Assembly (NCBI GenBank): GCA_002269645.1
Contig: NIVC01000664.1
Span: 1-64,000, forward strand
DNA: 64,000 nt
Source of the DNA: Macrostomum lignano
Lineage: Eukaryota
Direction of reading: 5' to 3'
In this document: positions 17,946-44,227 of the stretch, piece by piece
Layout: each line of letters begins with the position of its first letter
How positions within the stretch are numbered: the first letter of the stretch is position 1
The notes under the pieces: model-generated
The model's database searches: none
What the model was told of the DNA's origin: nothing
What the model saw: only the letters and a program-made list of their open reading frames with translations
Position numbers and translations under genes: made by a program

Positions 17946-19154
17946 GCCCTAACGCAAGCATTGTACTAACCACCGCCAACTCAGCTTAACTTGCATTTGC
18001 TATTTAATCTTTGTTTATTAGACCGTGTCGAGCAGTAGTCTGTAGGACCATTGGTGACTCCTTTAATGCTTTAATAGCCTTAAGACTCGCAAAACTGTTG
18101 GTGGGCTGGCTTTTGTCCATAGACGTCTGCGGGGTCAAGGCTCCAGCGAACTTCAGCAGCTTCTCACACTGTGGCCTCTGTTCTAACAGCAGATAGAGCA
18201 CGGCTTCTCCTTTAAGCTTGATTTCTCTAGAGCAGAGCAACAGAAGCAGTGCTTCATTCCCACTCACTGTATATTATGGAATGCTCCAGCTGCAGCATTA
18301 GCTAATCCTGGCGTCAAGCAATCTACGATAGGACTAGGGTCCAGAGCAGCTCAGCGATAAACACGTCTTGTCGTAAAGACAATTAGAAAGTCAGGACCTC
18401 TGTACACGGTTGCGTGGCACGAAGGCGTAAACGTTAAAGTAAACTGCTCTTCCGCCAGATCGGCTGGGCCTCCACCGACACGCCGCTGCTCCGCGACGAA
18501 GGTCTCGGCGTTGGCGACGACGCGGCCAGCGTCGCTATCGACGGCTGCCGCTGCTGCCTGTGGCACCGCGGCCGGCAGGACAAGCGGCGCTATCGCTGGC
18601 GTCGCTGGCGAGTTGGAGACGTTGTCGGCTGCCTGCTGGAATTTTCAGCCAATCAGCAGCAGCAGCAGCAACCGCAGTCGGCCGGCGGCTGGGCCGCTGC
18701 CCGCTTCAGCCTGAACGGCGCCTGGTCCAGCGCCGGCACCGCCGTCCGCCTCCCAGCCGTCGGGGCGGCCTACCGGCCAGCCGCCAGTCTGATGGCCAGC
18801 CAGCAGCTTCGGTTCAACTTTGGCGGCTCCGAGCAGCCGTTCCGCTACCGACCTCCGATCTCGGCTTCGACGTCAGCCATTGTCACGTCGCCAATAGATT
18901 TTGCGGCGGAAGCGTCGGGCGTTTCATCGGCTGATCGGCGACTTCTCGGCCTGCCCTGGCCGCTGGCCGTGCGGGAGCGGCGCTTCAACCTCACGCAGAC
19001 GGCGTCGCCGACAGCTGCGACTTGCATTGTGTGCGTCGACAGGCCCGGCGACGTCCGGCTAATGCCGTGCGGACACACCGGCCTGTGTCGGGTCTGCTCC
19101 GCTCGGCTGTCCGCCTGCCCGTTCTGCCGAGTTGAACTGGCCGGCATCGAGTGA
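15119..19154 (+). CDS. RSPRY1: RING finger and SPRY domain-containing protein 1: join(15119..15354,15739..15913,16482..16785,17431..17855,18459..19154), ~611 aa
   Basis: N-terminal MGNSC; VPIDHSL...LPTK; SPRY motifs [61 protein letters not shown]; C-terminal C3HC4 RING CIVC..MPCGH..LCRVC..CPFCR. All junctions are GT-AG and in phase. Confidence 0.93.
15929..16455 (+). repeat. (TCTG)n microsatellite in RSPRY1 intron 2
   Basis: Direct inspection. Confidence 0.97.
17873..17943 (+). repeat. (AG)n microsatellite in RSPRY1 intron 4
   Basis: Direct inspection. Confidence 0.97.
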
Positions 19155-20399: not shown

Positions 20400-21517
20400 C
20401 TGGTTCGCAAACGCTCTCGAATACCGAATAGCCTGCATAGCTGCCCGGACTCCAGGAAGCTGATCCAATTTGGCAGCTCGAATCTGAGCTCTGCTCAATC
20501 AGCACCGAGCCATCGAGCTCAGGAAGTAGCAGGCGGCGGTCGCCGCACCCGACTCCGGATGCTGCGTAGGCGAGTCTCAGAGTGGCGCCGCTGTTGAATT
20601 CGGCAGTTCCGGTCGCAGAGTTGGAGCTCAGGCAGCCAGATGTGAGGCTCAGGTAGTGGCTGGAGGTCTCAACCGACCTGAAAGATACGGAATTCGGCTG
20701 GCCGCTCAGCCCGGCTCGCTCAGCGAATACCGAAGCGCTGGATTGATTGCCTATCAGCGCACACCTGGTGCCAGGTGCGCACAGCAAGTAGGTATCCGTC
20801 TTGGGCTCTCGCAGTCGCAGGTGTCCGGACGGACACCAGGCCCTGTCTGCAGCGCAAAGATGAGCAGATTAATGTTAATGAAGAACTATGCAATCTCAAC
20901 ACTAAAATGAGCAGACTCACAATCGACGCAGTGAAAGGAGAGCGCTGAGTCCGACTTGAACAGGTCATCTCCAGGCCAGTTGGACTTCGTCAGGTAGTAA
21001 CTCTGATGCCGGATCCTCTGGTCCGGGAACCGCACCGGACTGATGCGCCAGTGGTTGCAGAACTCCGATGCGATGATTGTGAAACTGGCCGACTGTCTGA
21101 AACTGGCTGAGTCCGATTTCACCTGAAAGTAAAATTTGGTGCCGCTGGTGACCAAGTAGAAGTCGGGCCTCGCAGCGTCAGAGATGGACACAGCGCTGGG
21201 AGTTCCGTCCAGAGCGGGCTCGAGCTGCATCTGCAGCGGAGGGCTCGACGTTGAGATGAGGACTCTGGAGGTGGAGTCGCAGGTCCAGAAGTGATTGGAG
21301 AAGGGTCCGTAGGCCATGATCATGAAGGTGGCACAGGAGATGTTCTGTCCTAGAAAATGTGTGTAACAAAAGTACTCATACTTGAGTGCGATACATGTAA
21401 CTCGCAATCTGCAGTTGAAGCTCAAGCAGCTGTTTGCATAGGCAGTTAAATTATCTTCTTACCTGCAACTCCGGCTAAGTAGAAAATAAGGCTGCTGAGA
21501 AGCAGCAGGCTTAACAT
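20400..21517 (-). CDS. Secreted tandem AbfB/CBM42 beta-trefoil protein, copy 1: exons 21517-21463 (signal), 21349-20921, 20846-20400; last exon unresolved
   Basis: Signal peptide MLSLLLLSSLIFYLAGVAG; AbfB-like repeats ALDGTPSAVSIS..RPDFYL..FRQSASF, RFPDQRIRH..LFKSDSA and GLSGQPNSVSFRS..SHYL..EFNSGATL; phase-1 introns. Confidence 0.75.
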
Positions 21518-24452: not shown

Positions 24453-25622
24453 TTGCTGGAAACATTAGTGACAGAAACAGGTTCTGGAGATTTCACAAGT
24501 GAATTTAACGACATAGTAGGAAGAAATCAGAATCAAGGCAATCTAAGAGCTGATCAAGAAATAGGAGAATCCGAAGCCGAAGTCGAAACAGAAGAAATAG
24601 AGGTAGAAAAAGAAGAAGAAGAAGAGGTTGAAGTCGAAACAGACGAAGCCGAACCAGAAGAAACAGAAGAAGCAGAAGTGGACGAACAACCAGAAGCAGG
24701 AGCAGGTGGAGGAGACGACGCCGAAATGGCAGCAGGAATCGGATCAACGATCACTGCAATGGAAAAGATGGTCAAACCACTTGCACTTTTTGGAGATGTA
24801 GCCAAATTTTTGGACGACTTTGATACAGCGTCTGAGGTTTTCAATGTAACGGCTGCAAATAAACTAAGAATTTTTCCATTCTTTCTTGAACGACAAGTGA
24901 TGGAGATCTATAGAGCGATTCCGAATGAAAGGAAAGCTACTTATGCGCACATGGCTGAAGCACTGAAGGAAGAAATGCGAAATTACGCTCCTAACGACGT
25001 TGTCACAATGACCCAGTTAACAGCTAGAAAGCAAAAGGAAGGCGAGAAATTCATGCACTTTTACAACGATATTCGTCAACTTGTTCAGAAAATGGTGAAC
25101 GCAGAAGGAATTGAACCAGGCGCGGAAGGGAATCGCGAATTAATGCGAAGACAGGCCGAAAAGTTGGTCGTGCGGTATGCAATTAGTAATTCGCGCATCT
25201 ATCTCCGCAACAAACTACTGGAGGAAAATATCCAGACTACCCAGCAATTGCTAAGCCGAGCAAACCACTTCGAGTCGGTCGAGCCACTTAGGACGGAGAC
25301 AGAAGCTCAACTCGACAGCATCAATAAGAAACTAGAGGTAATGGCCTTGCAGATGGATGGCAATGCTGGAGGTCAACGGAGAGAATGGACGTACAGCCAT
25401 CCTAGAGACAATGGATGGCAGAACCACTGGCAAAACCAATATAGAGGTCAGCAAAACCCAAGAGGATGGCAGCCTCGAGGATTTAATCCTCAAAATCAGT
25501 GGAATCGAGGAAGAGGAAATCGAGGCCAAGGAGGAAACCCAAGAGGATATTGGAACAGAGGATCTTTTGCCAACAACCAAGGATATGGTCGAGGAAATCG
25601 TGGACGAGGCGGACGATACTGA
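24453..25622 (+). CDS. Ty3/gypsy-type Gag-like protein (acidic N-terminus, capsid-like core, RGG-rich C-terminus, no CCHC)
   Basis: FGDVAKFLDDF..KLRIFPFFL..IYRAI..TYAHMAEAL..LTARKQKEGEKFMHFYNDIRQL fits the retrotransposon gag pattern. Confidence 0.75.
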   Translation: MLETLVTETGSGDFTSEFNDIVGRNQNQGNLRADQEIGESEAEVETEEIEVEKEEEEEVEVETDEAEPEETEEAEVDEQPEAGAGGGDDAEMAAGIGSTITAMEKMVKPLALFGDVAKFLDDFDTASEVFNVTAANKLRIFPFFLERQVMEIYRAIPNERKATYAHMAEALKEEMRNYAPNDVVTMTQLTARKQKEGEKFMHFYNDIRQLVQKMVNAEGIEPGAEGNRELMRRQAEKLVVRYAISNSRIYLRNKLLEENIQTTQQLLSRANHFESVEPLRTETEAQLDSINKKLEVMALQMDGNAGGQRREWTYSHPRDNGWQNHWQNQYRGQQNPRGWQPRGFNPQNQWNRGRGNRGQGGNPRGYWNRGSFANNQGYGRGNRGRGGRY

Positions 25623-26288
25623 AGCAGAGGACAAATCAATAGAGGCCGAGGAACTGTCGGAAGAGGAAGAGGAGCAGGAGTGAATGTGGTTGACGCGCAA
25701 AGTGCAGTCGGAGGAACAGATTCTGCGCATGAGTATGAGCAGACCGGTGGTAATGAGGAACTTCAGCTTCTTGAGTTCCCAGAAATTAACGTCATGGAAA
25801 TGAAACCTCGGACAGCGGAGCGATGGTCATGGAAGATAATTTTCCTTTTCGTCTTCATGCTTTTAAGCCTAGGAGGAGTTCGGGCCGAGACCGAGTTGCA
25901 AGGCTCTGCGTCGAATCAAATGACCTACGGACTAGTCTGTGACCGATCGGTCGGACAGCAGGTATTCCGATTTCCAGAAGAAATCACCTGTCCAGAATTA
26001 AAAAGGAACCAGAATAGTGCAGAGCACAATAACTTTACGATATTTAAGCCGAATACGCAAACATTCAATGGGAAAATGGTTGTATGTCATCGAGAAGAGA
26101 TTCGTGTCGAAGCAAAGTGGTGGGGAACAGTGATGAATATCCACCACAGCATTGTCTTCAAGGTTACACCCCATGAGGTTTTAAGTGAGAACTGCAAGCG
26201 ATGTTTGCGAAAGAGCCAATCACAGAGCCCGGAGTGGGATGGGTGGTTTGTGGTGGTTCGGTCGAGGGTATATAAGCCCCGAAATTGA
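25623..26288 (+). pseudogene. Truncated env-like glycoprotein resembling the rhabdovirus G N-terminal ectodomain, in frame with gag
   Basis: Hydrophobic signal WKIIFLFVFMLLSLGGVRA, then FPEEITCP..IFKPN..CH..KWWG..IHHSI..TP..ENCK; native sequence ends at ~26200, where Polinton sequence begins. Confidence 0.6.
26216..26276 (+). promoter_or_regulatory. CCAAT box (26216) and TATA box TATATAAG (26269) upstream of the PC4-like gene
   Basis: Canonical motifs at promoter-like spacing, ~105 bp upstream of ATG 26381; duplicated at ~38417-38477 on the minus strand. Confidence 0.6.
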
Positions 26289-26380
26289 CAAGAAAGAATT
26301 CTCAATTTTTCAAATCCAAAATTTCATCCGAACTTTTCCTCAGCTTTTAACTTTTGTGAGTTTTCAATTGCGAAAGGAAA

Positions 26381-27073
26381 ATGGACATCTGTGAAGGCTA
26401 TAAGGCACAAGTCCAGGAGTTTGAAGGACAAAAATTTATCGCTATTCGCAAGTTTTACCGACACGGCAGCACGGCAAGTCTGAAGCCAGGCGTCCCAGGA
26501 TTCAACCTGAATGTTCACCAATGGAAGAAATTGAAGGAGGTGAAACGCTCACTTGTGATTTCTGCACGCAACAACGAGCCCAAGGTCGTGAAACTCGGCT
26601 TCGATAAGTTTGTGGAAGTCAAAGGCGGCATCATTTGGCTCAAACGGCTGCCGGAAGATTGCTGCGAGGAGTTTTTGAGACGAAACGCCGTACCACTGAC
26701 TCCGCCGCTGTGGCAGAAGCTCTGGAAAATCGCCTCCTGGATCGACGGTCAGCTGGTGGCTCCCTTGAGGAACTCAATGCAGTACGAGCTGGAGTCTGAT
26801 GAGGAAGAGGAGGAAGAGGACAAGAAGCTCAAGTTGGAGGCTGACCAGGACACGAAGCCCATAATGGAGACTGATGAGGGCGAAGAGCATGCTGATGACG
26901 AGGACGTTAGCTCGCCCACAAGGCCGCGCATTGTGACTGAGCCTATCACATCCACACCGATACCTTCGGTTGATTCTGATGCTGGACTGCTTCCGCAGCG
27001 GGACAGCGGGACAACCTTGAGGAAGATCCGGTGTGGTATCAGTTCAGGGCGCATGCAGCGGCTTCGACGGTGA
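26381..27073 (+). CDS. PC4/Sub1-like ssDNA-binding / coactivator protein with acidic tail (230 aa)
   Basis: VQEFEGQKFIAIRKFY..LKPGVPGFNLNVHQWKKL matches the PC4 pattern V..F.G...vDIR..Y...kPg.kGi.L...qW..L; a second degenerate repeat follows. Confidence 0.75.
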   Translation: MDICEGYKAQVQEFEGQKFIAIRKFYRHGSTASLKPGVPGFNLNVHQWKKLKEVKRSLVISARNNEPKVVKLGFDKFVEVKGGIIWLKRLPEDCCEEFLRRNAVPLTPPLWQKLWKIASWIDGQLVAPLRNSMQYELESDEEEEEEDKKLKLEADQDTKPIMETDEGEEHADDEDVSSPTRPRIVTEPITSTPIPSVDSDAGLLPQRDSGTTLRKIRCGISSGRMQRLRR

Positions 27074-27485
27074 GCAGCAGCAGCAGGAAGCGAAAGCTGC
27101 CATTTCAACTTCGTCGGCAGGACGCGATGAGGCTGCCCAATGTTCGCTTTGATAACTGAACAGCTAGAATGCTTTGAATGCATTGGACTAACTAAATTAC
27201 TTTTAGCTTGCACATGATTATCCAGCCTATATCTGACGGCACTATGCTGTTTTTTATCTCTGCTATTTCTGAAATGCTGGTGTGCGAGTGTTTTAGTGTT
27301 CGTTTTTATGGATTGTTTGCTTTCGGAAAATACACCGACTGTTACGATGTTAGAGGTTTCAATCTGACAGTAATAAATTAATTTGCCACTCGTTTCTCTA
27401 TCATTTAATTGGAATATAAATTTCTACTTAAGAAAAAATACTGTACAGCTAGAGCAGGTGGATAGGCACGTATCTTGATAAACCC

Positions 27486-28554
27486 ATGATGGAGAAAATT
27501 TATTTGAAACCTGAGCAACCGGCTAGTTTTTCTTGTGCCTCAAAGTTGCTGCATGAAGTGAGGCAAAGAGGTGATCGAATATCTGCAAAGAGCATTGAGC
27601 AGTGGCTCAGCGAGCAGCCAGTGCACACTCTGCACAAGCCAGCTAGGAGGCGATATCCAAGGGCCCCAATCATAGTGCGCGCAATCGATGATCAGTGGGA
27701 ACTTGACTTAGTGGAAATGATTCCATTCGCAAAGCATAATAAAGGCTACAAATATATTCTCACATGGATTGACGTGCTCTCAAAATGTGCTTGGGCCAAG
27801 GCACTGAAAAAAAATCTGCTGCAGAAGTGAAGTCAGCATTCGAGAGCATACTGAGAAGTTCAAAGCGCCAGCCACGCACAGTTCGCACAGATCAGGGGAA
27901 GGAATTTATCAACTCTACTTTCCGTCAATACTGCATTGACAGAGGGATTCTGGCTTTCCCAACTAACAGCGAGCAGAAGGCGGCTGTCATTGAGCGATGG
28001 AATCGGACTCTGAAAAGTAGAATGTGGCGCTACTTCACCTACAAGAGCACACTGCACTGGCTTGATGTGCTGCCTAAGCTGGTAAAATCCTACAACAATA
28101 CCTACCACAGAAGCATCAAAATGGCACCCACTAGTGTCTGCAAAGAGAATGAATCTGAAGTGTGGATGAACCTGTACGATGGAAAAGCAGCCGAGACTCT
28201 AGAAAAATTAAAGAAGCCTAAGTTCGCTGAAAACCAGTCAGTGAGAATTTCCAATGCTCCACGGCTATTCAAAAAGGGATACAAAGCGAGCTGGAGTGAG
28301 GAAGTGTACACCGTGGTGAGCAGAGCCCCAAAACATTACCCTACATGTACAAGATTAAAGACATGCGGGGGCAAGAGATTCGAGGACTCTTCCATGAGCA
28401 CGAGCTGCAGGCTGTCCCGGACTCACAGCGGCTGTATGTGATTGAGAAGATCCTGAAAACGGAGAAGCGGAAGGGAAAGATTCGCTATCTGGTGAAGTGG
28501 GCCGGCTACGACTCGACTGGCTGGGTGGATGAAAAAGACTTAAGAAAGGTTTAG
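27486..28554 (+). CDS. Polinton retroviral-like (rve) integrase with C-terminal chromodomain; 2 frameshifts (~27810, ~28340)
   Basis: DDE motifs QWELDLVEM, RTDQGKEF and AVIERWNRTLK; YNNTYHRSIKMAP; chromodomain VIEKIL..RYLVKWAGY..WVDE. Confidence 0.92.
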
Positions 28555-28573
28555 CTTTGGCACATCCCTCATC

Positions 28574-29390
28574 ATGAAGTTTATCTTTATAATGCGAACT
28601 ATTTTGATTAACAGTGAGCATGCTGAAGGTACTCCTTGTGACTTTAATTTTTACCTGCCTTCACCTATTTACTTGGATCGAAATGTGGACTATGAGGCAG
28701 GTCTGGCTGAAATCCATCTGCCTGCTGCATGGTTCAATGTTGACGAGCCTTACTGCTTCACTGTCTCAGATGGAAGAGAGCATGAGGCCCTGGTTCTTCA
28801 ACCCGGACGCTTTGCTAGAGTGGAGGAGCTGGTGGAGCGCTGAATGAGCTGCTGGCCAACTCTGATTCGCTGTTCTTTGATGCAATGAGTGACAGGGAGT
28901 CTGAGATGGAGGCTGATGAGTCCGGCCTGATGGGGCGTAGTGGCAACAGGGAATTTGGTATGAAGTTCGAAATCCGCAACTCACGAACTGTGGTGCACAA
29001 CAACACTGCGAGAGCAGAGCTGTTTCTTCCATCTAGCAAAATTCTGCATTGGCTGGGATTTGGAAACCAGGCTGTGAAAATCCAGCCAGGGAGCCGCGTG
29101 TCCGAGCATTGCACTGGCTGCCCGCGCACCAGCTTAATCAATGTGCACTGCAGTATCGTTGAGTCAACTAATTGCAACTGGAGCTCCTTGTTGAGAACAG
29201 TTGGAATGAAAGCCGGCATTGAATGGGGCAACTATCAAACAAAAATATTTAAGAAAACAATATTCTTCCCGATTCAACGAATCAGTCTTCTCCACAGCAT
29301 TCGAGTTCAGCTCCGTGACATCTATGGAACAGACAGACTCACAGCCCTGTTCTGCTTACAGTTCAAATTCAGGAGAAACGCATTCAATGA
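28574..29390 (+). CDS. Minor capsid protein (penton), frameshifted
   Basis: FNFYLPSPIYLD..YEAGLAEIHLP..WFNV and C-terminal INVHCSIVE..LLRTV..IRVQLRD; position between INT and MCP. Confidence 0.75.
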
Positions 29391-29763
29391 ACTACCAGCA
29401 GCTAATCCAGCAATATTCGGGGGTGAGGACAGGACACGAAAAGCCTGCACTCTATGGCTGTGGGAGCTTCCCAGGGATCATGACATACCAGCCTCCGCCA
29501 GCGGCTATATCATCATCATCAGCCTCGACGCTTAGCAACGTCAGGCGCAAAAGAAATACTGAAGCAAGTCCGAAACGATTGAAGAAAAGAAGGGCACCCG
29601 AAAGGCAACTGGTGGAAATCGCAGTAAGAGGTCGAGCAAGGCTAGTGGGAAAAAGCTTAAGAATAGGAAGACGAAAGCAAAGAAGAATAGAGCAGGCGGA
29701 GGAAAGCGAAAGCAAAAAGTCAGCAAGAAAACTGTGAAACGCGTGCTCGACTCTCTGTCATAG
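29387..29763 (+). CDS. Small basic PZ-like core protein
   Basis: MNYQQLIQQYSG..GSFPG start and a K/R-rich C-terminus (alternative frame ..GGGKRKQK..); lies directly upstream of the MCP. Confidence 0.5.
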
Positions 29764-29765
29764 AC

Positions 29766-31044
29766 ATGGCTTACGGATTCAATCCCAGACTTGATTTATT
29801 TAAGACGCCCGTTCTACAAACCTGCATTGAAAAAGCTACTTATGTTGATATTCACCCAGTTAATTCCATTGTTGCAAACTCTCCCATTGAATTTGACTGC
29901 CACCAATCTGCCGATGAATATACAGATCTGCTAATTCTTTTCTTTATATTCGCTGCCGCCTTGTGAGACTGGATGGGGGTTGCTGAGGGAGGATGTTCGA
30001 GATGGAGATGGCATCATCACCGAGCGCAGAGACAGTGACGTGCACCCAGAAAATTTTGTTCTGTCTACAGTCTTCTCAGATGTAATTGTGAGCATTAACC
30101 AGCGAGTGGTGTCTGGTGGAGACCAGCTCTATCCCTACCATGCGTACTTCAAAGCACTAATGAGCTCATCTGATGCCCAGCAACTAAAACTTTACCCTGC
30201 TGGCTTCCTGGAGCCGAACTCGGCAGCTGAAGAGCACACGGAGAGCCACAGGGAATCCCATGGATGGAGTATGCGGGGCCGCTCTTCAGCGATGTTTTCC
30301 AGTGCCCAGTGTTTCTGCTAACAATCTGCACTTGCACATCAAACTGGTGCCCAGCGATGGGGCCTTTGCCATCAGAACCCCGAATGCAAACAACGCGGCA
30401 TACCGAATGGAAATCTCTCACAGCATTCTGCATCTTCGCCGAGTCAAAGTGGTGCCCCACATCAGCCTGGCCCATGAGCAGGGGCTGACAAACCAAAATG
30501 CACTGTATCCCATCGAGCGAACTGAAATGCAGAACTTCATCCTACCCCAGGGTATTCAGTCAAAAAACATTGAAGGATTCACTCATGGAAAATTGCCGAA
30601 GTTCATCATGCTGGCCTTCGTGAGCCACCGAGCATTCAACGGTCATCATCACGCGAGCCCGTTCCAGTTCCAGAGCTTCAACCTTAGCCGATTGGCTCTA
30701 AAGAAAGGTGGGGAAACCGTGTGCCACGGCGCCTTCACACCTGAAAACAATTCCTTTGTAAGAGAATACTTGCACTACCTGAAAAGCTGTCAATCTGCAA
30801 GCCACACAAACTCGGTTCCGTGGATCCCCTACCAGCTCTTCTCCAACAACAGCACGGTGTTTGCATTCGATCTCACACCAGAGGAGCGGCTCTGTGGTAC
30901 GGACAGAAGGAGGGCAACCTGCGGCTGGAGATTCGCTTCCAACAGGCTCTGAATGAAGCGGTGTCCCTGATTGCTATGTGCCTGTATGACTCGCTGATTG
31001 AGGTCACCAAGCACCGAGAGCTTTTGCTGGACTATTCATCTTAA
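29766..31044 (+). CDS. Major capsid protein (double jelly-roll), several 1-nt frameshifts
   Basis: LDLFKTP.LQT.IE..YVDIHP..PIEF..EYTDL; LPKFIMLAFV..AFNG..SPFQFQ.FNL; VFAFDLTP; GNLRLEIRF..L..YDS.IEV..RELLLDY. Confidence 0.88.
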
Positions 31045-31049
31045 TTGAC

Positions 31050-31562
31050 ATGGATGCAATTCAACTACTTAATCTCGCCAGAAAATTTTTGCCTTACCAA
31101 AAATTTCTCATAGTTACTTTACATTTGCGCTATAAAATTTCTCTGCCCTTGAATGTAAAAAGAAAATTTAGATCATCAATTTCCTTTGAAAACAAGTTTG
31201 TTTTTGTCCTACTTCAGCACAATGGCTCATTTGGTCACTGGGTGGTGTGCTATGTTGGGCAAGGAAATCGCATTGAGTTGTTCAACTCCCTCGGCTGGGA
31301 ACCTGAAATTTTATCTTTGGTTTATAATTTGTTTCGAGAGATTAAAACAACTGGCTTTTGTCTCCGAAGCAATATAAACAGATTTCAATGTGCTAACTCT
31401 AATAAATGCGGAATGTTTTGCATCTATTTTGCTTATCAAAAGTTTCTGTTCAATCGGTCATTTGAGGGGATTTTGAAGCATTTGCATGCTAATGAAAAAA
31501 ATCATTTGAATGATAGAATCTTACAGAGGTTTGAAGCCAACTTAAGAAAAAGATGTCCGTGA
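31050..31562 (+). CDS. Adenain-like maturation cysteine protease
   Basis: GHWV..ELFNSLG..FQ..S.KCGMFCIYF (His and Cys with oxyanion Gln; the usual Asp reads Asn). Confidence 0.85.
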   Translation: MDAIQLLNLARKFLPYQKFLIVTLHLRYKISLPLNVKRKFRSSISFENKFVFVLLQHNGSFGHWVVCYVGQGNRIELFNSLGWEPEILSLVYNLFREIKTTGFCLRSNINRFQCANSNKCGMFCIYFAYQKFLFNRSFEGILKHLHANEKNHLNDRILQRFEANLRKRCP

Positions 31563-32233
31563 TTTCTAATATTTATGCATTAAACATGGGAGAAAAGCAA
31601 GTTTGCTACGATATCCGCCTCAGGCAGGGAAGCTGCATGATTGTCTGCGGGCCCACCAATGCAGGAAAAACAACCTTTGTCAAACACCTGATCCAGTACA
31701 GAGACGTCATGTTTGATGTGAAGCCTGGCAGAGTTCTGTGGTACTATGGGATCTCACAGGCAGGCCATGCAGAACTGAGCAGCCTAGGTGTGCAGCTGCG
31801 CCAGGGATTTCCCACCAACATCGAGGCAGCACTTAGGCCCAATGACCTGGTTGTTTTCGATGACTTAATAGAGGAAACTTCAAACTCTGCTTCAATGCGA
31901 AATTTTTTCACAGGAATCGCACATCACTTGCCGTGCTTCTTGGTGATGCTGACTCAGAATATATTTTTCAAGGGAAAAGAGTCGCGAACAATGAGCTTGA
32001 ATGTAATGTATTTAGCTATCTTGAAAAACCCCAGAGACCAGCTGCAGATTGCAGCACTGGGCAGGCAGTGCTTTACAGAGAAGCCCGGCTTTCTGCTGTC
32101 AGTGTTCAAGCACGTGACCGCGCAGGGCAGGGGAGCCTACCTGTTCCTGGATTTTCATCCATCAACTCCCGATGAGCTGCGAGTGCGGGCCAGAATTTTA
32201 CCCAACCAGCGACCCCATCTTGTATTTGCTTAA
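31553..32233 (+). CDS. FtsK/A32-like genome packaging ATPase
   Basis: Walker A GPTNAGKT, Walker B LVVFDDL, FTG..HH, LTQNIF, RTMSLN..Y..KNPRD..QI..LGRQ. Confidence 0.93.
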   Translation: MSVISNIYALNMGEKQVCYDIRLRQGSCMIVCGPTNAGKTTFVKHLIQYRDVMFDVKPGRVLWYYGISQAGHAELSSLGVQLRQGFPTNIEAALRPNDLVVFDDLIEETSNSASMRNFFTGIAHHLPCFLVMLTQNIFFKGKESRTMSLNVMYLAILKNPRDQLQIAALGRQCFTEKPGFLLSVFKHVTAQGRGAYLFLDFHPSTPDELRVRARILPNQRPHLVFA

Positions 32234-32274
32234 GAAAGTGAAGCTTGTTTTTATCAGCTATTGTTTTCATCGCT

Positions 32275-32580
32275 ATGGAAGTGCTTGATTCATATGCAAG
32301 TCTGTTTGCGGTTCTTGCGTCACCTAAATATACCGTGCGCTTCAAGCGGCTGTTGATAAAAAATTGTCCAAAAGAAGTGCGTTATTTTCTTGTCGAGGCC
32401 TGCCATAATCTCTTACAAAACAATCTATCGTTTTCGCTCGATGAAAAAGCTGTTCTTGCAAAGTCAAAAGAGATAATTCGAAAAATTACTCACAAAAGAA
32501 GAAAGACAGACTTGTTGAAGGCTGGCTTCATCAAAATACTCCCGATTCTGCTTAAGCTGGTAAAGAAAAGAAGCAAAATG
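32275..32580 (+). CDS. Conserved small Polinton protein
   Basis: E.CHNLLQNNL.FS..EK..L.K.K.IIRKI pattern, typical of the ORF next to the Polinton ATPase. Confidence 0.55.
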
Positions 32581-33269
32581 AACAAATTTTCAGAAATGGT
32601 TCTGATTCCTAAAGCAGAGTATGAGATGTTGATGCAGAATTTGAAGCCAAATGAGAATACACTGAAGCTGACTTGAAGCAGGCTCAGAAGAAATGCGATG
32701 ACATCTTGTATGCCGAAGATTGTCCAGAAGATGTGAAAACCGCCATGTACCAAAGTGCAATGCAAAGTTTGCTGGCCAAGCGCAAGCACGCTGGAAAAGA
32801 AGGAGCACGCAATACTGAAGCCAAGTTGATGAAAACAGAGACACCCCAGATGAGCACCTGGGAAGAGAAGATCAGCAAGTCGGTGCCACAGAAATTCAAA
32901 ACCAGGGCTCGCAGTCTGTGGACGATCCTGTCCACCAATCCAGAGCTGATTCGAGTTTGTGAAAACGGGGAGGTGGAAATCGCAGGCACGTCAATCCCTT
33001 CCTCAAACATACTGGACTTGATTCAGCACACAGTGAGGGATTCGCCATGTGAGCGTGAACCAGTTGGGTGGAACGAGTTCATCGATTTTCTGCAGCAGAA
33101 AAAGCTTAATGTTCCGCTTTCCGCTATTGGTAAATCAGTTAAGAAGAAAATGGCAACCAGCAGAGGGGGTGAACTGGAGAAAGAACAGGAGAGTCTAGTC
33201 AAGGGGTACGGGAGCAACACAGCCTGGCTGAAACTGCCCGGAAGAAAAGTATATAAGAAGGTGGACTGA
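32578..33269 (+). CDS. Polinton PW-like conserved protein (frameshift at ~32665)
   Basis: MVLIP..Y start; ENGEV.I.G..IPSSNILDLI..P.GWNEF..L..NVP..IG. Confidence 0.7.
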
Positions 33270-33298
33270 CTCCGAAATTTTCGAAGGAAAGCTGCATC

Positions 33299-33733
33299 AT
33301 GAACTACATTGACTTCCAGGGATTCCCGTGCAACAGCACAAGCAAAAAATTTGTTGTGAAGGAGTTGGCAGTTGTTCAAATCAGAGCGGGGAGCTACCGC
33401 ATTGCTCACCATGTGTACGCACCTCCGTATCCATGGGAGAGAGTCTCACCTGACATGCGAGTTTACTACAGACAGCTATCTAAGAGTCTGCACCAGTTTA
33501 AGTGGAATGATGGAACCCGTCCGTACATGGAACTGGCGGAAGACATTCTGAGCATTGCCAGTGGTCCGATCTGGTCAAATGGGGAAAGGAAGTCGATTTT
33601 TCTGACTGAGCTGCTTGGAAGACAGGTTTATAACCTAGAAGATTTGGGAGCACCTTCGATTGAAGATTCAGATACTGGCTGTGCAGTGAGAAATTCATTG
33701 CTGCACTACAGTCGGCTTAAGCCAAAGTTCTGA
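33299..33733 (+). CDS. DEDD-fold exonuclease-like Polinton accessory protein
   Basis: IDFQGF..FVVKELA..APPYPW..HQFKWNDG..Y..NG.RK.IFL..VYNLEDLG.P; a CPWH motif follows in another frame. Confidence 0.6.
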   Translation: MNYIDFQGFPCNSTSKKFVVKELAVVQIRAGSYRIAHHVYAPPYPWERVSPDMRVYYRQLSKSLHQFKWNDGTRPYMELAEDILSIASGPIWSNGERKSIFLTELLGRQVYNLEDLGAPSIEDSDTGCAVRNSLLHYSRLKPKF

Positions 33734-33819
33734 AATCAACTTAAGAAGCGAGCAGTGTCCGTGGCACACGAGCAGTAAAGTTGGCAGAAGCAGATTTGGT
33801 GAAGAAGTTGACGATCGAA

Positions 33820-34393
33820 ATGAGCCCACCAGCTACAGCCCTAAGAGTGACCAATCTGGTTGGCGGAGTAGATCTGAGACTGGATGGTGGCAGGGGCGCC
33901 CCAGCTGCCTCTACGGGAACTGGCTCTCAGCATGGCTCATGTGATCTACCGGCCCGTCTGGCCCCGGGTGCTCATCAAGCGGATGCGGATTCCCAGAGTG
34001 ACTCTGTTACTCTACCCTACTGGGCAACTGAGCATCTGCGGTGCCAAGACCCACGCAGACGCCAAAAGGGCTGCCCGTCGCTTCGTGGCTATGCTGCATC
34101 GGAGAGTGCCGGCTCAACTGCTGCCTCATCAAACAATTTGTGTTCGAATTAAAACTATCACTGCTCATGGACAGCTCCCAGTTCATTCCGCACTTTCCTT
34201 ATTAATGTTAAAATCAATTATCCCAAACGCCGAATATGAACCAGAATCCTTTTCTGCTTTAATTTTCAATTTAAACTTTTGTAAATGTCTGCTTTTTCAC
34301 AGCGGCTCTTTTGTTCTCAGTGGAGCTCGGTCCTTGAATCAGTTGCATACCGATAGCATGCGTCTACTCAATGTAGTTCTTTCCATTGAATAA
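33820..34393 (+). CDS. TATA-box-binding protein (TBP)-like, ~190 aa after removing one G at ~33893
   Basis: Two TBP repeats: VTNLVGGVDL..LPLRELA..IYRP.WP.VLI.RMRIPRVTLLLYPTGQLSICGAK..AKRAARRF and NAEYEPESFSALIF..CLLFHSGSFVLSGARS. Confidence 0.85.
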
Positions 34394-34974
34394 AAATAAA
34401 AGTCAAGTCAAGCAATTTGCCGCAAATATTTCAATGATTAGTGAAAAGTGAATAAAAGGATAAACTTGGTATTCTTTACATTCATTTTCCCAGGCAGACA
34501 GCTATGGAACACTTCAAAAACGTATTTAGCCCATCACCAAAAGTATCGCAAAACGCATATCAAATCCGAAAGTAAACAATACTACCATCGTTATAACAAA
34601 CGATGTGCACCGAGAGAAGAGAAATAGAAAAGTGATAGAGAAAATTTGATTAAAACGCTGATTGAATTTACAGGAACAATTTATGTCAGATAAAAACCAA
34701 AAACACATTTTAAACAAGTAGTACACAAAGCAAAAAAAATGAATTAATATTGTATGAGCGCACTTGCCACAGCTTTATAAAAAGTAAAACTTAAATTGAT
34801 ATCAATATTTCACGCCGCAAAAACAAATTGACAGCTAAATCTAGCGCAATTAGCCAAGCATACAAATTTGTAAATGTTACTACATGCAAGTCACTACATT
34901 TTAAAACAGAATTTGGCAATTTAAACAACTCTAAAAGCAAGAAAAAGTACTAAACAGTCTGTTAAACACCCGCA

Positions 34975-37824
34975 CTAGACCAGTCGGATGCGCTTCAGCT
35001 GATCGTGGGATGCGGGCGTCAGCGCATAGTGTCCGTAGGGCAGGCTTCGATTACTGCTAAGCCACACTCGCTTATCCTCCCACACCGATAGGCTTCTTTT
35101 CTCCATGACCGACGTGAAGATTTCGTGTTTCTTGGAAACAATCGCTGTCATGGCAACCATCTGCTCTTGCTTGGACTCGAACGCGTCGACATAGTTCGCA
35201 TGCGAAATTTGCTGTCTTACTACTGACTGCTTCACGCCTTTGGCAGTTTTCTTGATCTTTGCACTCGAATTCTCGGCAGGGAGAAACGAATAAAGTTTTG
35301 GACGCAAAAGAATTCACTCCTGGTAAATTCCACCAGCAGATTCATCTTTAACGCAGCCCAGCTTTCCTTTTAACTCTTCAGAGAAATGCGGATGGTCACG
35401 AGAATAGTTGGATGTGTCAAGTATTTTTTCCTCTCTAAGCTTCGGGATTACCTCCGATGTTAAATCATGATTCTTGAAAGCTAGAAAAAATGAGTCAGTA
35501 TCACCTCCGCAAAGCATCATGTCTCTGGAACCGTCTGAATGACAGAACAGCGGTCGGAGCCTGTCATATAGTAGGCTGTACATGGCAATCTTAGAGAGAT
35601 CGAGAACTGCCTGGCCAACGAAAATGGCCTTGTCAAGCGTGATTTTATCTTTTTTGAGCTGAAAAATGCTCAACGACTCATTGATAATCGAGAATGCGGC
35701 ACAGTTTGGTCGAGAGGTGCAAGTTTCTGCTTGAGTCTGGTTAGTGCAAATTCGAACATCGCATCTTTTTCGAACGTTCTCCATAGTTTTTCCAAAGAGA
35801 GAATTGTTTTTCAATTTGTAAAAAATCCTTAGCAAACTCGGAAGTTGCCAAAGCTCTTTTTTCATTGTTGCTGGCAATGTACGGCGCGAAAATATTTTCC
35901 TGCTTGAACGAAATCATTTTTTTGACGCACTTGATCCGCATTCCGTGTTGCAGGTAAAATCTTAAAACGGTGCTGTGAACTACGTAAGAATCCTTGTCGG
36001 TACAGGTGAGTAGAAGCTTCTCCGTTGCTTGAAATTTAGCTTCAGCATTGCCAGTTCGCTGTTCAGCAATCTCTTTCCATAGTTCGGCCATGTACGGCGA
36101 GAATTGATCTGGCTGTGGTTTTGATTTTTCAGGTGCAAACGGTAACTCCTGAGTCGAATCGTGAATCTCAGCTGGGTATTCTAGATCGAGTTGAACAAGG
36201 TAGGCGATTTCGGCTTCTGGATTGAGTGACAGAAACCGATTGGAGTCCCAGAACTGGATTTCCTGTTCCGGTACCCACCTGAATTCCCTGCATGGAAGCG
36301 GAAGCGACAGGGCAAAGCCATACAAGTTGTTCATATCGATCGGCATGAGGCTTACACTCTCTTGCTGATCATCATAACCTGGCAAGCTAGGATTATTACC
36401 TTTGACGCAATGCACATTAATGAAGGACATGCCTCCTCGTATTCCCTTCTCAAACAGATGATACATGTCAGCATCAGTCAGCTGCTCTAGAACCACTCCA
36501 GTCGACTTTAGAGCTGAGTCGTAAGACAAACCAGGAGTAGTAAAGTAGTGTACCGGATCCAATCCGTCCTCTTTCAGACTGGCCTGTCGGAATGTCTCAA
36601 AAATGTCAGCCAGCTGCCTTACATCCATTTCAAGATAGGCGAGCATATAATCCTTCAAACTTTTGCATTGAAATGCCGCCCATGCCGCTCTTGCTCTATT
36701 GTAGTCGTCGTCGGAAATTCCCCTATCGGAAAGTCGATTAAAAAAAGCATCTTTAGGCGGCAAAACCGACTGCTCGAGAATCTCAAATCCTGTGAGGTAA
36801 TCATATGGGAAAATCCCTTTTTTCGAAGTAGCTCTCTTGAAAGATGTGGTCTTGACTCAAGCATTTGCATTGTCAGCTTGCATTCAGCTTCGGGAAGATT
36901 AGCAAACAAATTGGACAAACTTCCCTTCAAAAAGCAGAGCGAGTCGATGAACTGAATTGTAAACATGATTGGCACAACTTTTCCGTTCTTTACGTAACTT
37001 GCAACAGGGAATTCCGCCCTTAGTGACAAGTATCGCTCGGATGATTGCGGAACAACACTAAGTTTCCAATTTTTCATGCTCCCAAGCGCAGTGGAAAGTA
37101 GAAGATGAAGGTCGTAGCCGCCTAAGTTGTGAAAAACCAGGGGCAGAAACCGGCGTCGGAGCTGTGCTCGCAGGTTGCATTCTTGACATGCTGCACCTTT
37201 GTACTGTCCATTTAAATGATCGTGGTCAAAATGTTTATCTGTAGAACTTTTAAAGTTCTTCTTGCAGTAGTGACATACCTCAGCAGAATTGAAATCATCC
37301 ATGACGGTCGCGGATGATCGGTCAGCCGGCTGGTGGCTATGCTTCTGGTTCCAGTGAAATATATCCTGAGCCAGGCTTTCAAGAGATTTGAGAAAACCAA
37401 GGATACACTCATCAGGGTCCGCATTGCAAAAGACCTTGTACATGTCTCCTTCTGGCCTAAGCGGAGGTCCTGTCATGCCTTCACGAGGCACTGCAAGAAA
37501 AGCTGCTGCACATGGTTCATGCTTCGAGATCAGGTTAGCAGGGTCTGTGTTCGCTCGCAAAATGGCTTCCAGGTCGGCATAGGCAACGAATGGTGGACTG
37601 ACAGTGTTTTGACAGTTTCGGAACTTTATTTCATTCTTTCCTGGAACTGGAAGCGTTTCTTTGACAGGATTTTCTGCAGTAATGCTGCATTCGTTCCTGT
37701 GCTCTTGAAGCCTCTCGTTGCTATAAAATGATGTTAAACATTTCGTGCACCACTTCCTCATGGCGGGACCATTACGACTGTTCATTAACCTGTCAAAATT
37801 AGTAATTGCACACCAGTGCTCCGA
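34975..37824 (-). pseudogene. Protein-primed family B DNA polymerase (pPolB) with endonuclease-VII-like insert; N-terminally truncated, 2 frameshifts, 1 in-frame TGA (35314-35316)
   Basis: YADLE; CHYC..DHDHLNG..AACQECNL; FHNLGGYDLH; FIDS; KGIFPYDY; YLEMDV.QLADIFE.FR; GIRGG; DMNNLYG; KLKNNSLFGKT; GDTDS; LRPKLYS. Confidence 0.93.
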
Positions 37825-38492
37825 TCCATTATGGGCTTCGTGTCCTGGTCAGCCTCCAACTTGAGCTTCTTGTCCTCTTCCTCCTCTTCCTCATCAGACT
37901 CCAGCTCGTACTGCATTGAGTTCCTCAAGGGAGCCACCAGCTGACCGTCGATCCAGGAGGCGATTTTCCAGAGCTTCTGCCACAGCGGCGGAGTCAGTGG
38001 TACGGCGTTTCGTCTCAAAAACTCCTCGCAGCAATCTTCCGGCAGCCGTTTGAGCCAAATGATGCCGCCTTTGACTTCCACAAACTTATCGAAGCCGAGT
38101 TTCACGACCTTGGGCTCGTTGTTGCGTGCAGAAATCACAAGTGAGCGTTTCACCTCCTTCAATTTCTTCCATTGGTGAACATTCAGGTTGAATCCTGGGA
38201 CGCCTGGCTTCAGACTTGCCGTGCTGCCGTGTCGGTAAAACTTGCGAATAGCGATAAATTTTTGTCCTTCAAACTCCTGGACTTGTGCCTTATAGCCTTC
38301 ACAGATGTCCATTTTCCTTTCGCAATTGAAAACTCACAAAAGTTAAAAGCTGAGGAAAAGTTCGGATGAAATTTTGGATTTGAAAAATTGAGAATTCTTT
38401 CTTGTCAGTTTCGGGGCTTATATACCCTCGACCGAACCACCCCAAACCACCCATCCCACTCCGGGCTCTGTGATTGGCTCTTTCGCAAACAT
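37825..38492 (-). repeat. 668-bp inverted duplicate of 26201-26868 (promoter plus the first ~163 codons of the PC4-like gene; ORF 38312-37785)
   Basis: Near-identical reverse complement; two substitutions seen upstream of the ATG. Confidence 0.95.
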
Positions 38493-38539
38493 TATTTCCA
38501 ATTACATAGATTAACATTCATTCAGCTAAGCTAACCCAC

Positions 38540-38850
38540 TCCATCCTATCTCTGCAGTGTTAACCACCCCCAATGCAAAGAGATAGGCCGCCTCTCCTCC
38601 TATCTCTGCAGTGTTAACCATCTCCAGTGTAAAGAGATAGGCCGCCTCTCCTCCTATCACTCCAGTGTTAAGCAGAGATAGAGCTCATATCTCTGCAGTG
38701 CTTAGCCGTCCCCAATGCACAGAGATAGAGCTCATATCTCTGCAGTGCTTAGCCGTCCCCAATGCACAGAGATAGAGCTCATATCTCTGCAGTGCTTAGC
38801 CGTCCCCAATGCACAGAGATAGGGTTCATATCTCCGCAGTGTATTTTTCC
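38540..38850. repeat. 47-52-bp tandem hairpin-forming repeats near the element's right end
   Basis: Unit agagatagagctcatatctctgcagtgcttagccgtccccaatgcac with an internal agagata/tatctct inverted repeat. Confidence 0.85.
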
Positions 38851-39204
38851 CTATACATTTGCATTGCCGCCTATCTCGCCAGTGCTAGTGCGGCAGTATC
38901 ATAATTCGCCCTACTACTCACGCCGAAAGGAGCCAAACGAGACAAATCAGTTGCGAAAAGCAGGCAGCGGCCGAGAAAGCGGATCCCAGCGAAGCGTTTG
39001 TTTATTAGTTTAAACGAGTTAATATTTATTGGTTCGTAAAAAGCAGAATAAAAAATTGAGAAATTGCGACGGAGCCAAGCCGGGCCGGGTGCGCGGCCAA
39101 CACCCCCACACCTCAACCCCCCGCCAAAGTACAGCGATATGTACAGCGGCACCCTCCGGCGCGTCTAACACACCTTACTCAGAGAGTAACGATTGCATTA
39201 TCAA

Positions 39205-43206: not shown

Positions 43207-44227
43207 CTGGTTCGCAAACTGGGCTGAACGCTTCATAGTCGGTGTAGCTGTTTGAAGACCAGGCAGTAGCCTCAATCTTGCAAGCTCCTGTTCTGTAGTT
43301 CATGACGGAGCTGCCGAGCCCCGGCAGCAGCAGGCGGCGGTCGCCGCACCCGACTCCGGATGCTGCGTAGGCGAGTCTCAGAGTGGCGCTGCTGTTGAAC
43401 TCGGCAGTTCCGGTCGACGCCAGCAGCTTGAAGCAGCCGGAGTCCGAGCTCAGAAAGTGGCCGGGACTGTCAGCTGACCGGATCGACACGGAGTTCACCT
43501 CGCCGCTCAGTCCGGCCTGCTCGATGAAGACTGAGCCGGTCGATTTGGTCGAGCTCAGGTCGCAGGAGCTTCCGATTGAGCAGGACAGGAAGCTGGCAGT
43601 GGATGTTCTCAAGCTCAGCCTTTGAGACGGGCACAGGCGCGTGTCTGAAGAGAAAGTAGTCGATAAAATCAAATGAAAATTTATACTCTTTGGTAGCTTT
43701 AGGCTCAGCATGAAGTTTTATATAAATAATTTTAGGATGAAAATCAGCAGGTAGAATGTTAGCTCAGTTAAGGGTGCGATTTAAAAATTTAGACTCACAA
43801 TCAACGCAGTGAAAGGAGAGCGCTGAGTCCGACTTGAACAGGTCATTTCCAGGCCAGTTGGACTTCGTCAGGTAGTAACTCTGATGCCGGATCCTCTGGT
43901 CCGGGAACTGCACCGGACTGATGCGCCAGTGGTTGCAGAACTCCGATGCGAGGATTGTGAAACTGGCCGACTGTCTGAAACTGGCTGAGTTCACTTTCAC
44001 CTGAAAGTAAAATTTGGTGCCGCTGGTGACCAAGTAGAAGTCGGGCCTCGCAGCGTCAGAGATGGACACAGCGCTGGGAGTTCCGTCCAGAGCGGGCTCG
44101 AACTGCATCTGCAGCGAAGGGCTCGACGTTGAGATGAGGAGTCTGGAGGTGGAGTCGCAGGTCCAGAAGTGATTGGAGAAGGGTCCGTAGGCCATGATCA
44201 TGAAGGTCGCACAGGAGATGTTCTGTC
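43207..44227 (-). CDS. AbfB/CBM42 tandem beta-trefoil copy 2: exons 44227-43799 and 43644-43207; signal and last exons not found
   Basis: Nearly identical to copy 4 including the intron; bounded by the solo-LTR-like and SINE-like insertions. Confidence 0.7.

Follow-up and report, generated by a model that had tools for sequence, protein, structure and literature searches.

A TATA-binding-protein-like gene in Polintons of Macrostomum lignano and a TATA-variant box before the element genes

The 64,000-nucleotide stretch of Macrostomum lignano DNA analysed here (the window) holds a Polinton whose forward strand carries, at 33820..34393, a core-only, two-lobed TATA-binding protein (TBP)-like gene. 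New here are the 8-mer CTTAAGAA, which stands on the sense strand before most of the co-oriented genes of this element, and the occurrence of three TBP types with three boxes side by side. From the aligned sequences and a predicted fold, we consider it fairly likely that the encoded protein is a core TBP of altered specificity, which would recognise CTTAAGAA, a TATA variant private to the element, and direct host TFIIB and RNA polymerase II (Pol II) to the element genes.

The open reading frame (ORF) at 33884-34393 of the window matched the Pfam TBP family (PF00352) in two stretches with 84.8 bits (E 3.8e-24, cut-off 22.9), and the best PDB sequence matches of the window TBP ORF were archaeal and eukaryotic TBPs, with 1mp9 at the top (E 1.2e-18). 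The N-terminal part of the gene begins at 33820 in a frame other than that of this ORF. An AlphaFold2 model built from a Polinton-only alignment reached a pLDDT of 90.3, and the model built with host rows in the alignment gave the same result. Foldseek matched the predicted protein to human and archaeal TBP at TM 0.82-0.83, VIA gave Z 19.6 with an rmsd of 2.2 over 175 residues, and a search of the ESM Atlas returned only TBP clusters. A database protein labelled Macrostomum lignano is 99% identical to the TBP of the window element. The core-only, two-repeat TBP proposed in an earlier sequence-only reading of this DNA is thus borne out by the two Pfam stretches and the predicted fold, which together identify the ORF as a two-lobed core TBP, a real gene in a broken copy. 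The gene is intronless, comes after the ORF at 33299 and is convergent with the pieces of the protein-primed DNA polymerase B (pPolB), as that reading had described; the AATAAA that it had placed at the stop, a putative poly(A) signal, overlaps the stop codon at 34389..34394 (+).

When 150 of 222 candidates were scored in the 764-Mb genome to which the window belongs, at least 151 TBP-like matches were obtained. In 28 of 29 sibling loci, a single open 190-aa ORF starts at the upstream ATG, and the 29th holds an open ORF of 185 aa, so that the upstream MSPPATAL... segment is, as had been proposed, part of the gene. The window copy is frame-broken at ~33,899-33,901 and not, as first read, in the run of four G near 33893; five siblings keep this run yet differ from the window at the former positions, and contigs from two of four sequencing runs show an indel at 33,900. 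The contigs of these four runs, guessed to be RNA, covered 30 of 30 bins evenly with intergenic DNA included, and are therefore uninformative on expression, strand and start sites. The window element is 98.9% identical to the sibling C1021 with 29 gap openings, and is collinear with it from 26201 to 37827. It is without its left terminus, and the right ~4.5 kb of the sibling is missing, replaced at 37825..38921 (-) by an inverted copy of the left end with a second PC4 start and a terminal AGTAGTAG-type end. The switch after 37827 is either a rearrangement or a misassembly. Judged by this structure, the window element is a dead, rearranged and defective copy, and its biology was hence read from the siblings.

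Copies whose TBP is 73-100% identical to that of the window were assigned to family A (with one degraded copy at 46%), and copies at ~37% identity with a different layout to family B; a search with the family-B capsid gave a third lineage, families C-E, whose capsid is ~30% identical to that of family A. Around each of 30 copies, picked to span the identity range, ~20 kb was fetched: the upstream ORF lies directly 5' of the TBP gene in 29, a putative capsid gene is near in 29, and pPolB is found in 24. The sibling C1021 is 16.8 kb long, with a 333-bp terminal inverted repeat (TIR) and AGTAG / AGTAGTAG ends. On the forward strand of the window element, a PC4-like ORF (transcription coactivator / ssDNA-binding; Pfam PC4, E 4e-08) at 26381..27073 is followed by an rve integrase in pieces at 27486..28441, which in the sibling is a 356-aa protein with a chromodomain (rve, E 3e-13). 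A broken putative major capsid gene lies at approximately 29766..31044, assigned by size and position only; the 427-aa sibling ORF at this expected place had no Pfam or PDB sequence match. Next to it are an adenain-like maturation protease at 31050..31562 (Peptidase_C5, E 5e-4, just under the cut-off) and an A32-like P-loop packaging ATPase at 31553..32233 (weak Pox_A32 match, Walker A in the sequence). The pPolB gene occupies 35314..37785 on the reverse strand, in pieces and with its 5' part missing (DNA_pol_B_2, E 3.5e-5 on the window piece, under the cut-off), and its ORF in siblings has 1,096-1,152 aa. With pPolB and an rve integrase, a protease and a packaging ATPase, TIRs, a length of 15-20 kb and AG-rich ends, the element is classed by its predicted genes and termini as a Maverick/Polinton.

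The upstream ORF lies at 33299..33733 (+) of the window, and has 283 aa in siblings, where it shares DNA, in a different frame, with the first ~110 codons of the TBP gene. Its position agrees with the sequence-only reading; the label 'exonuclease-like' given there found no Pfam or PDB support, and rests on what we take to be a D-x-E-like N-terminal motif. This overlap (33299-34150 of the window and L004:903-1754) covers the first 107-111 TBP codons in nine of nine family-A representatives and 129 codons in five of five family-B copies. The overlapping frame stays open in 1% and 0.1% of synonymous shuffles for families A and B, respectively, and synonymous divergence rises from 0.27 to 0.70 at the end of the overlap; the pattern reflects either dual coding or a recombination boundary. 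Two family-B copies (L133:148-1212 and L137:520-1611) have one ORF that fuses the upstream gene to a TBP minus its first strand, which is an assembly error or a real variant. The PC4-like gene is present in families A and B, with a canonical TATA in 16 of the 17 distinct family-A upstream regions listed. It is the second gene of the element related to transcription, and may be expressed early. Two ORFs at 24726-26190 adjoin the truncated left end of the Polinton. One presumably resembles gag, for which Pfam gave no support, and weak matches to herpesvirus glycoprotein B (gB) were obtained for the other (11 of 11 listed PDB hits of gB type, best E 0.016). Outside the element, the window holds a lone RING-finger ORF (18792-19154) and three AbfB-domain ORFs that are ~98% alike (20886-21323, 43764-44201 and ~52608).

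The median dN/dS among nine family-A subfamily representatives was 0.14 for TBP residues 8-110 (36 pairs, which are not independent of each other) and 0.15 for residues 111-172 (25 of 36 pairs unsaturated). The TBP is a fixed accessory gene of these Polintons under purifying selection (dN/dS ~0.14); the earlier view of a diverged TBP carried by a Polinton is sustained by this value, by the linkage in 29 of 30 copies and by the fold. An alternative is that the gene is a recent processed copy of a host TBP, or the decayed passenger of one element, for which its intronless state and the broken window copy might speak. The host TBP is also intronless, so that the former proves nothing, and the at least 151 genome matches, the open siblings, the low dN/dS and an identity of only 26-29% to host TBP all stand against it. 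Furthermore, the AU test rejected a clade with host TBP (p 0.0008) and, weakly, one with host TLF (p 0.036). This alternative was ruled out on these grounds, leaving it almost no probability, and a recent host insertion absent from the other copies, which the sequence-only reading had named as the finding that would undo it, was not what we observed. Its term 'captured' likewise fails if it is taken to mean recent capture from this host (p 0.0008).

Host TBP and host TLF were located at other loci, three each, and the DNA face of host TLF is very altered. In a tree of 42 rows, the TBPs of families A and B formed one group with four relatives from outside this genome (99/96), and the AU test did not reject the grouping of these two families with C-E (p 0.29); long branches limit both this tree and the AU tests, and the tree names no donor. 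A tree of 143 rows is a quick tree only. A Polinton-only profile search found nine related proteins, which are encoded on short contigs or carry the label M. lignano, with few close relatives outside this genome; when host TBPs were added to the profile, cellular TBPs dominated the result. Scans of viral contigs with the Polinton alignment and with the query P0040 found no relative. In a metagenome scan, 32 loci at 23-33% identity were obtained, and tblastn showed convincing Polinton genes at none of them. Mini-TBPs of 169-189 aa (P0040, P0041, P0081, P0115, P0145, P0084 and P0091; from ENA, Logan and NCBI) have the second Asn absent and branch near the Polinton TBPs; they are probably TBPs of other mobile elements.

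The box CTTAAGAA occurs six times in the window element, each time in sense orientation, and five times on both strands in the remaining 51 kb of the window. It was located (all +) at 27427..27434, in non-coding DNA 59 nt before the integrase ATG; at 28539..28546, 44 nt before a putative minor capsid gene; at 29656..29663, 110 nt before the putative major capsid gene; at 31541..31548, before the packaging ATPase with 42-58 nt to the Met common to the subfamilies; at 32229..32236, where it overlaps the ATPase stop 46 nt before a ~112-aa ORF; and at 33740..33747, 80 nt before the TBP ATG. The upstream exonuclease-like ORF is preceded by TATATAAGAA (33250..33259, +; 49 nt before its ATG), which is a canonical TATA and a TAAGAA box in one, and the PC4-like gene by a canonical TATATAAG (26269..26276, +; 112 nt). 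The latter TATA box, put forward earlier as a binding probe, is probably not the main target of the element TBP, for which CTTAAGAA is the better probe.

Across five family-A blocks, the sense/antisense counts of CTTAAGAA were 6/0, 6/0, 6/1, 5/0 and 6/0, for an expectation of 0.1-0.3. The box was first picked from the data; its core TAAGAA was then fixed on one copy and tested elsewhere. In the discovery copy, 8 of 10 genes have this core in the 150 nt upstream (random 1.8). A diverged subfamily likewise gave 8 of 10 (random 2.0, p 2e-4), and the held-out family B gave 5 of 9 (random 1.2, p 0.003), its integrase being left out of the nine for its split start. The two of ten genes that miss it are the protease and a ~230-aa ORF. 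Four boxes lie wholly in coding DNA, which was reached in 6 of 3,000 synonymous shuffles, and when diverged subfamilies were compared, 62 of 64 box bases matched as against 107 of 192 flank bases. The distance from box to shared ATG is 35-150 nt and almost never below 35 nt; the integrase box of one subfamily is more than 200 nt upstream, and the box-like TATAAAAA of family B is only 11-23 nt before its ORF. These exceptions, like the two genes that miss the core, count against the proposed role of the box. The TBP gene stands behind the variant box in family A and behind TATAAAAG in family B, and the diverged C130 subfamily of family A has no canonical TATA in its whole block. The family-A arrangement and the C130 block argue against a tidy early/late switch.

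In families C-E, a separate and very diverged TBP precedes pPolB (Pfam 31 bits; 83 genome matches; 8 of 9 copies examined). Family B shows (C/T)ATAAGAA five times in sense and never in antisense, plus one CTTAAGAA, and families C-E show TATAAGC(A/T) at 5-6/0, with zero CTTAAGAA and zero (C/T)ATAAGAA. Stray TATAAGC(A/T) was seen once in five A blocks and not in two B blocks. TATAAGC occurs within 170 nt upstream of 4 of 7, 3 of 8 and 5 of 8 genes in C-E (p 0.005, 0.049 and 0.001), the motif and the 170-nt limit having been chosen after the data were seen. The boxes of A and B mostly start with C and those of C-E with T. No Polinton free of TBP that could act as a negative control was found in this genome: four capsid loci of 45% identity proved to be family-B copies, and the group at 34-36% carries a TBP too.

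All three boxes contain TAAG, which raises the possibility that they are late initiators of the TAAG type, used by the transcription apparatus of a large DNA virus acting as helper, and that the TBP has another role. Its model is presumably the baculovirus-like DTAAG, and virophages and PLVs are, as general background, known to share helper promoter motifs. Plain DTAAG was unenriched in 12 of 12 blocks, with observed counts near or below shuffle expectation; the plain DTAAG initiator was rejected on this count, and only the lineage-specific 8-mers are enriched. A distance of less than 35 nt between box and shared ATG is also almost never seen, which a TATA position would predict, and we regard a helper initiator as very improbable.

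Several further features were observed in these lineages. In the family-B copy G000:C114, the integrase is apparently split by an intron, and its apparent first ATG has a CATAAGAA box 35 nt upstream. The TBP frame of family D (L224:2276-2845 (-) onward; G000:C297 and C362) runs on into an open frame of 469-473 aa, whose following domain we take to be a P-loop resembling deoxynucleoside kinase. Gene order differs in families C-E (L201-L220), where the TBP frame has no Met to start from and, in C593, comes after what looks like a 3' splice site; some ORFs of these families are presumably dUTPase-like and parvovirus-PLA2-like.

The family-A TBP keeps two Phe, the first Asn in the first N-x-V, YEPExF and LLF, and has T-x-T in place of the second N-x-V; the retained YEPExF and LLF and the lost second N-x-V had already been noticed in the window. 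The second Phe position of repeat 1 is Tyr, also as first read; the Trp assigned to the first position depends on the alignment, since MAFFT and hhalign both put Pro in this column and Trp one residue earlier. Relative to what we take to be the canonical TATA-binding set (yeast F99/F116/F190/F207, N69/N159 and P191), F116 is Tyr, the F99 column is Pro or Trp, N159 is Thr and P191 is Ser, Thr or Asn, so that the full set is not retained. Some lineages have changes or uncertain residues at three of the four Phe positions that bend DNA, which counts against binding of a TATA-type box. Common to all three TBP types are Tyr-Pro at the second repeat-1 Phe, Ser/Thr replacing the following Val, and Thr/Ser replacing the second Asn. 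The repeat-2 Pro is lost in families A and B, and F-P is kept in C-E. On the DNA face, Y65, T112, T114, S71 and H160 are conserved across lineages that are 37% identical, and in the acidic TFIIB stirrup Glu140 and Glu142 are invariant in 13 rows. The change of Val to Ser/Thr may admit the G of the box; apart from the role of the Pro, the assignment of base-by-base contacts is presumptive. Phe-to-Tyr is reported in PMC7221094 to influence TATA binding, and PMC12529657 holds that the repeat-2 Pro favours T at the first TATA position. By the latter statement, the first base of the box, C mostly in A and B and T in C-E, fits the repeat-2 Pro being lost and kept, respectively. This match of residues to boxes is suggestive only, as three TBP types are few and share ancestry.

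These features can be joined into one scheme. Host TBP would first turn on the genes with a canonical TATA, namely the PC4-like gene and, in most subfamilies, the exonuclease-like one. The element TBP with its remodelled DNA face would then bind the variant box, lying at the TATA position ~30 nt before the start site, and its acidic stirrup would bring host TFIIB and Pol II to the integrase, capsid, packaging and neighbouring genes. Host TFIIB is the expected partner because both stirrup Glu are invariant and no element TFIIB was found: Pfam gave no match among the scanned ORFs, and phmmer with one host TFIIB exon against three elements gave only an 11.4-bit match in the PolB frame; a remote cyclin fold could have escaped these sequence searches. 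We infer this pairing from the residues alone.

The same residues can be read in another way, in which the reader of the box comes from the host (its TBP, its TLF or some other core-promoter protein) and the element TBP is a decoy for TFIIB or TBP regulators. The invariant stirrup beside a much altered DNA face agrees with this, as do TATAAGAA and TATAAGCA, which are one or two changes off TATA, and a host TLF with its very altered DNA face. A single host reader, however, leaves three lineage-specific 8-mers in one genome unexplained, and conservation of the DNA-face substitutions across 37%-identical lineages is unlike relaxed selection; we judge a decoy unlikely. Among the functions suggested from the window alone, altered specificity and redirection of Pol II gain support from the lineage-specific TATA-variant box before genes, and the decoy gains none. 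It is also conceivable that the element TBP binds the box mainly to repress, keeping integrated copies silent. Such a repressor fits the same box and selection data, and the family-A TBP gene has a box of its own, as autorepression needs. Its retained TFIIB-contact Glu speak against repression, and since CTTAAGAA is not a canonical TATA, the box genes would be left with no obvious activator, which makes the repressor quite unlikely.

The closest working analogue of the altered-specificity TBP favoured here is found in beta- and gamma-herpesviruses, whose TBP mimics, such as KSHV ORF24 and EBV BcRF1, read TATTWAA late promoters according to PMC12529657. ORF24 is described there as a large multidomain protein of a six-protein complex, which binds Rpb1 directly and is without the TFIIB-binding acidic residues. 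In both systems, the virus or element encodes a TBP fold, its own genes, structural ones included, are the only ones with the TATA variant, and transcription is by host Pol II, the last of which is our inference for the Polinton. Unlike ORF24, the Polinton protein is a bare 190-aa core with the TFIIB Glu kept, its box is CTTAAGAA, and no partner complex was found; by this comparison it is not a member of the ORF24-type viral TBPs, and would be an analogue in its working only. With cellular TBP/TRF/TLF and archaeal TBP, it shares the two-lobed saddle, the first N-x-V, the repeat-2 Phe pair, the YEPE stirrup and a basic helix 2 (family A). It differs from cellular TBPs in its 26-29% identity, the missing N-terminal extension, T-x-T, the repeat-1 F-to-Y with Pro, the lost repeat-2 Pro and its separate branch.

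Among large dsDNA viruses, TBPs are known from NCLDVs (PMC7221094) and mirusviruses (PMC10132985); such viral TBPs mostly lose the TFIIB glutamates and pair with their own viral TFIIB, as stated in PMC7221094. The Polinton TBP has a viral TBP fold in common with these, and its best BFVD match was the Heterosigma akashiwo virus TBP (E 1e-11). Its identity to them is 7-20%; in contrast, it keeps the Glu and resides in a 17-kb element in which no TFIIB or RNA polymerase was detected. Other Maverick/Polintons (adintoviruses) likewise have pPolB, an rve integrase, a protease, an ATPase, putative capsid genes and TIRs, to which this element adds TBP-like and PC4-like genes and a shared promoter box. 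The statement that such a gene had not been described for Polintons needs a qualification, since the legend to Fig. 5 of Starrett et al. 2021 (PMC8502044; preprint 10.1101/697771) gives the label 'TBP' to a gene of a MELD virus whose PolB is adintovirus-like. This is a TBP-like gene in a Polinton-type genome, given in the searched text as a legend label without analysis of residues, promoter or function. The text of PMC8502044 does not mention Macrostomum, and the one supplement searched had no TBP match. In the full-text literature searched, which covers few subscription journals, this legend and its preprint were the only trace of a Polinton-type TBP, and no Polinton promoter box paired with a TBP was found.

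A wider form of the altered-specificity reading is that each animal Polinton lineage has a mini-TBP re-specified for a TATA variant found in that lineage, as private and mutually orthogonal codes, with host TFIIB and Pol II kept; we hold the chances for and against it to be about even. If true, a single protein would do for each lineage what the late-gene complex does for herpesviruses, so that co-resident lineages could be activated independently of one another, and the Polintons would together supply a natural library of TBPs with altered specificity. The presence of three TBP types and three boxes in one genome makes the idea directly testable by cross-binding, and a named protein with a named 8-bp site makes the reading testable in a flatworm that is kept in the laboratory. 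Few proteins are as conserved as TBP, and natural variants of it beside candidate sites would give a direct test of the rules of TATA recognition. For Macrostomum lignano, the finding suggests that each of these Polintons, the high-copy one of the window included, likely brings its own switch, which would steer the host transcription machinery to its own genes.
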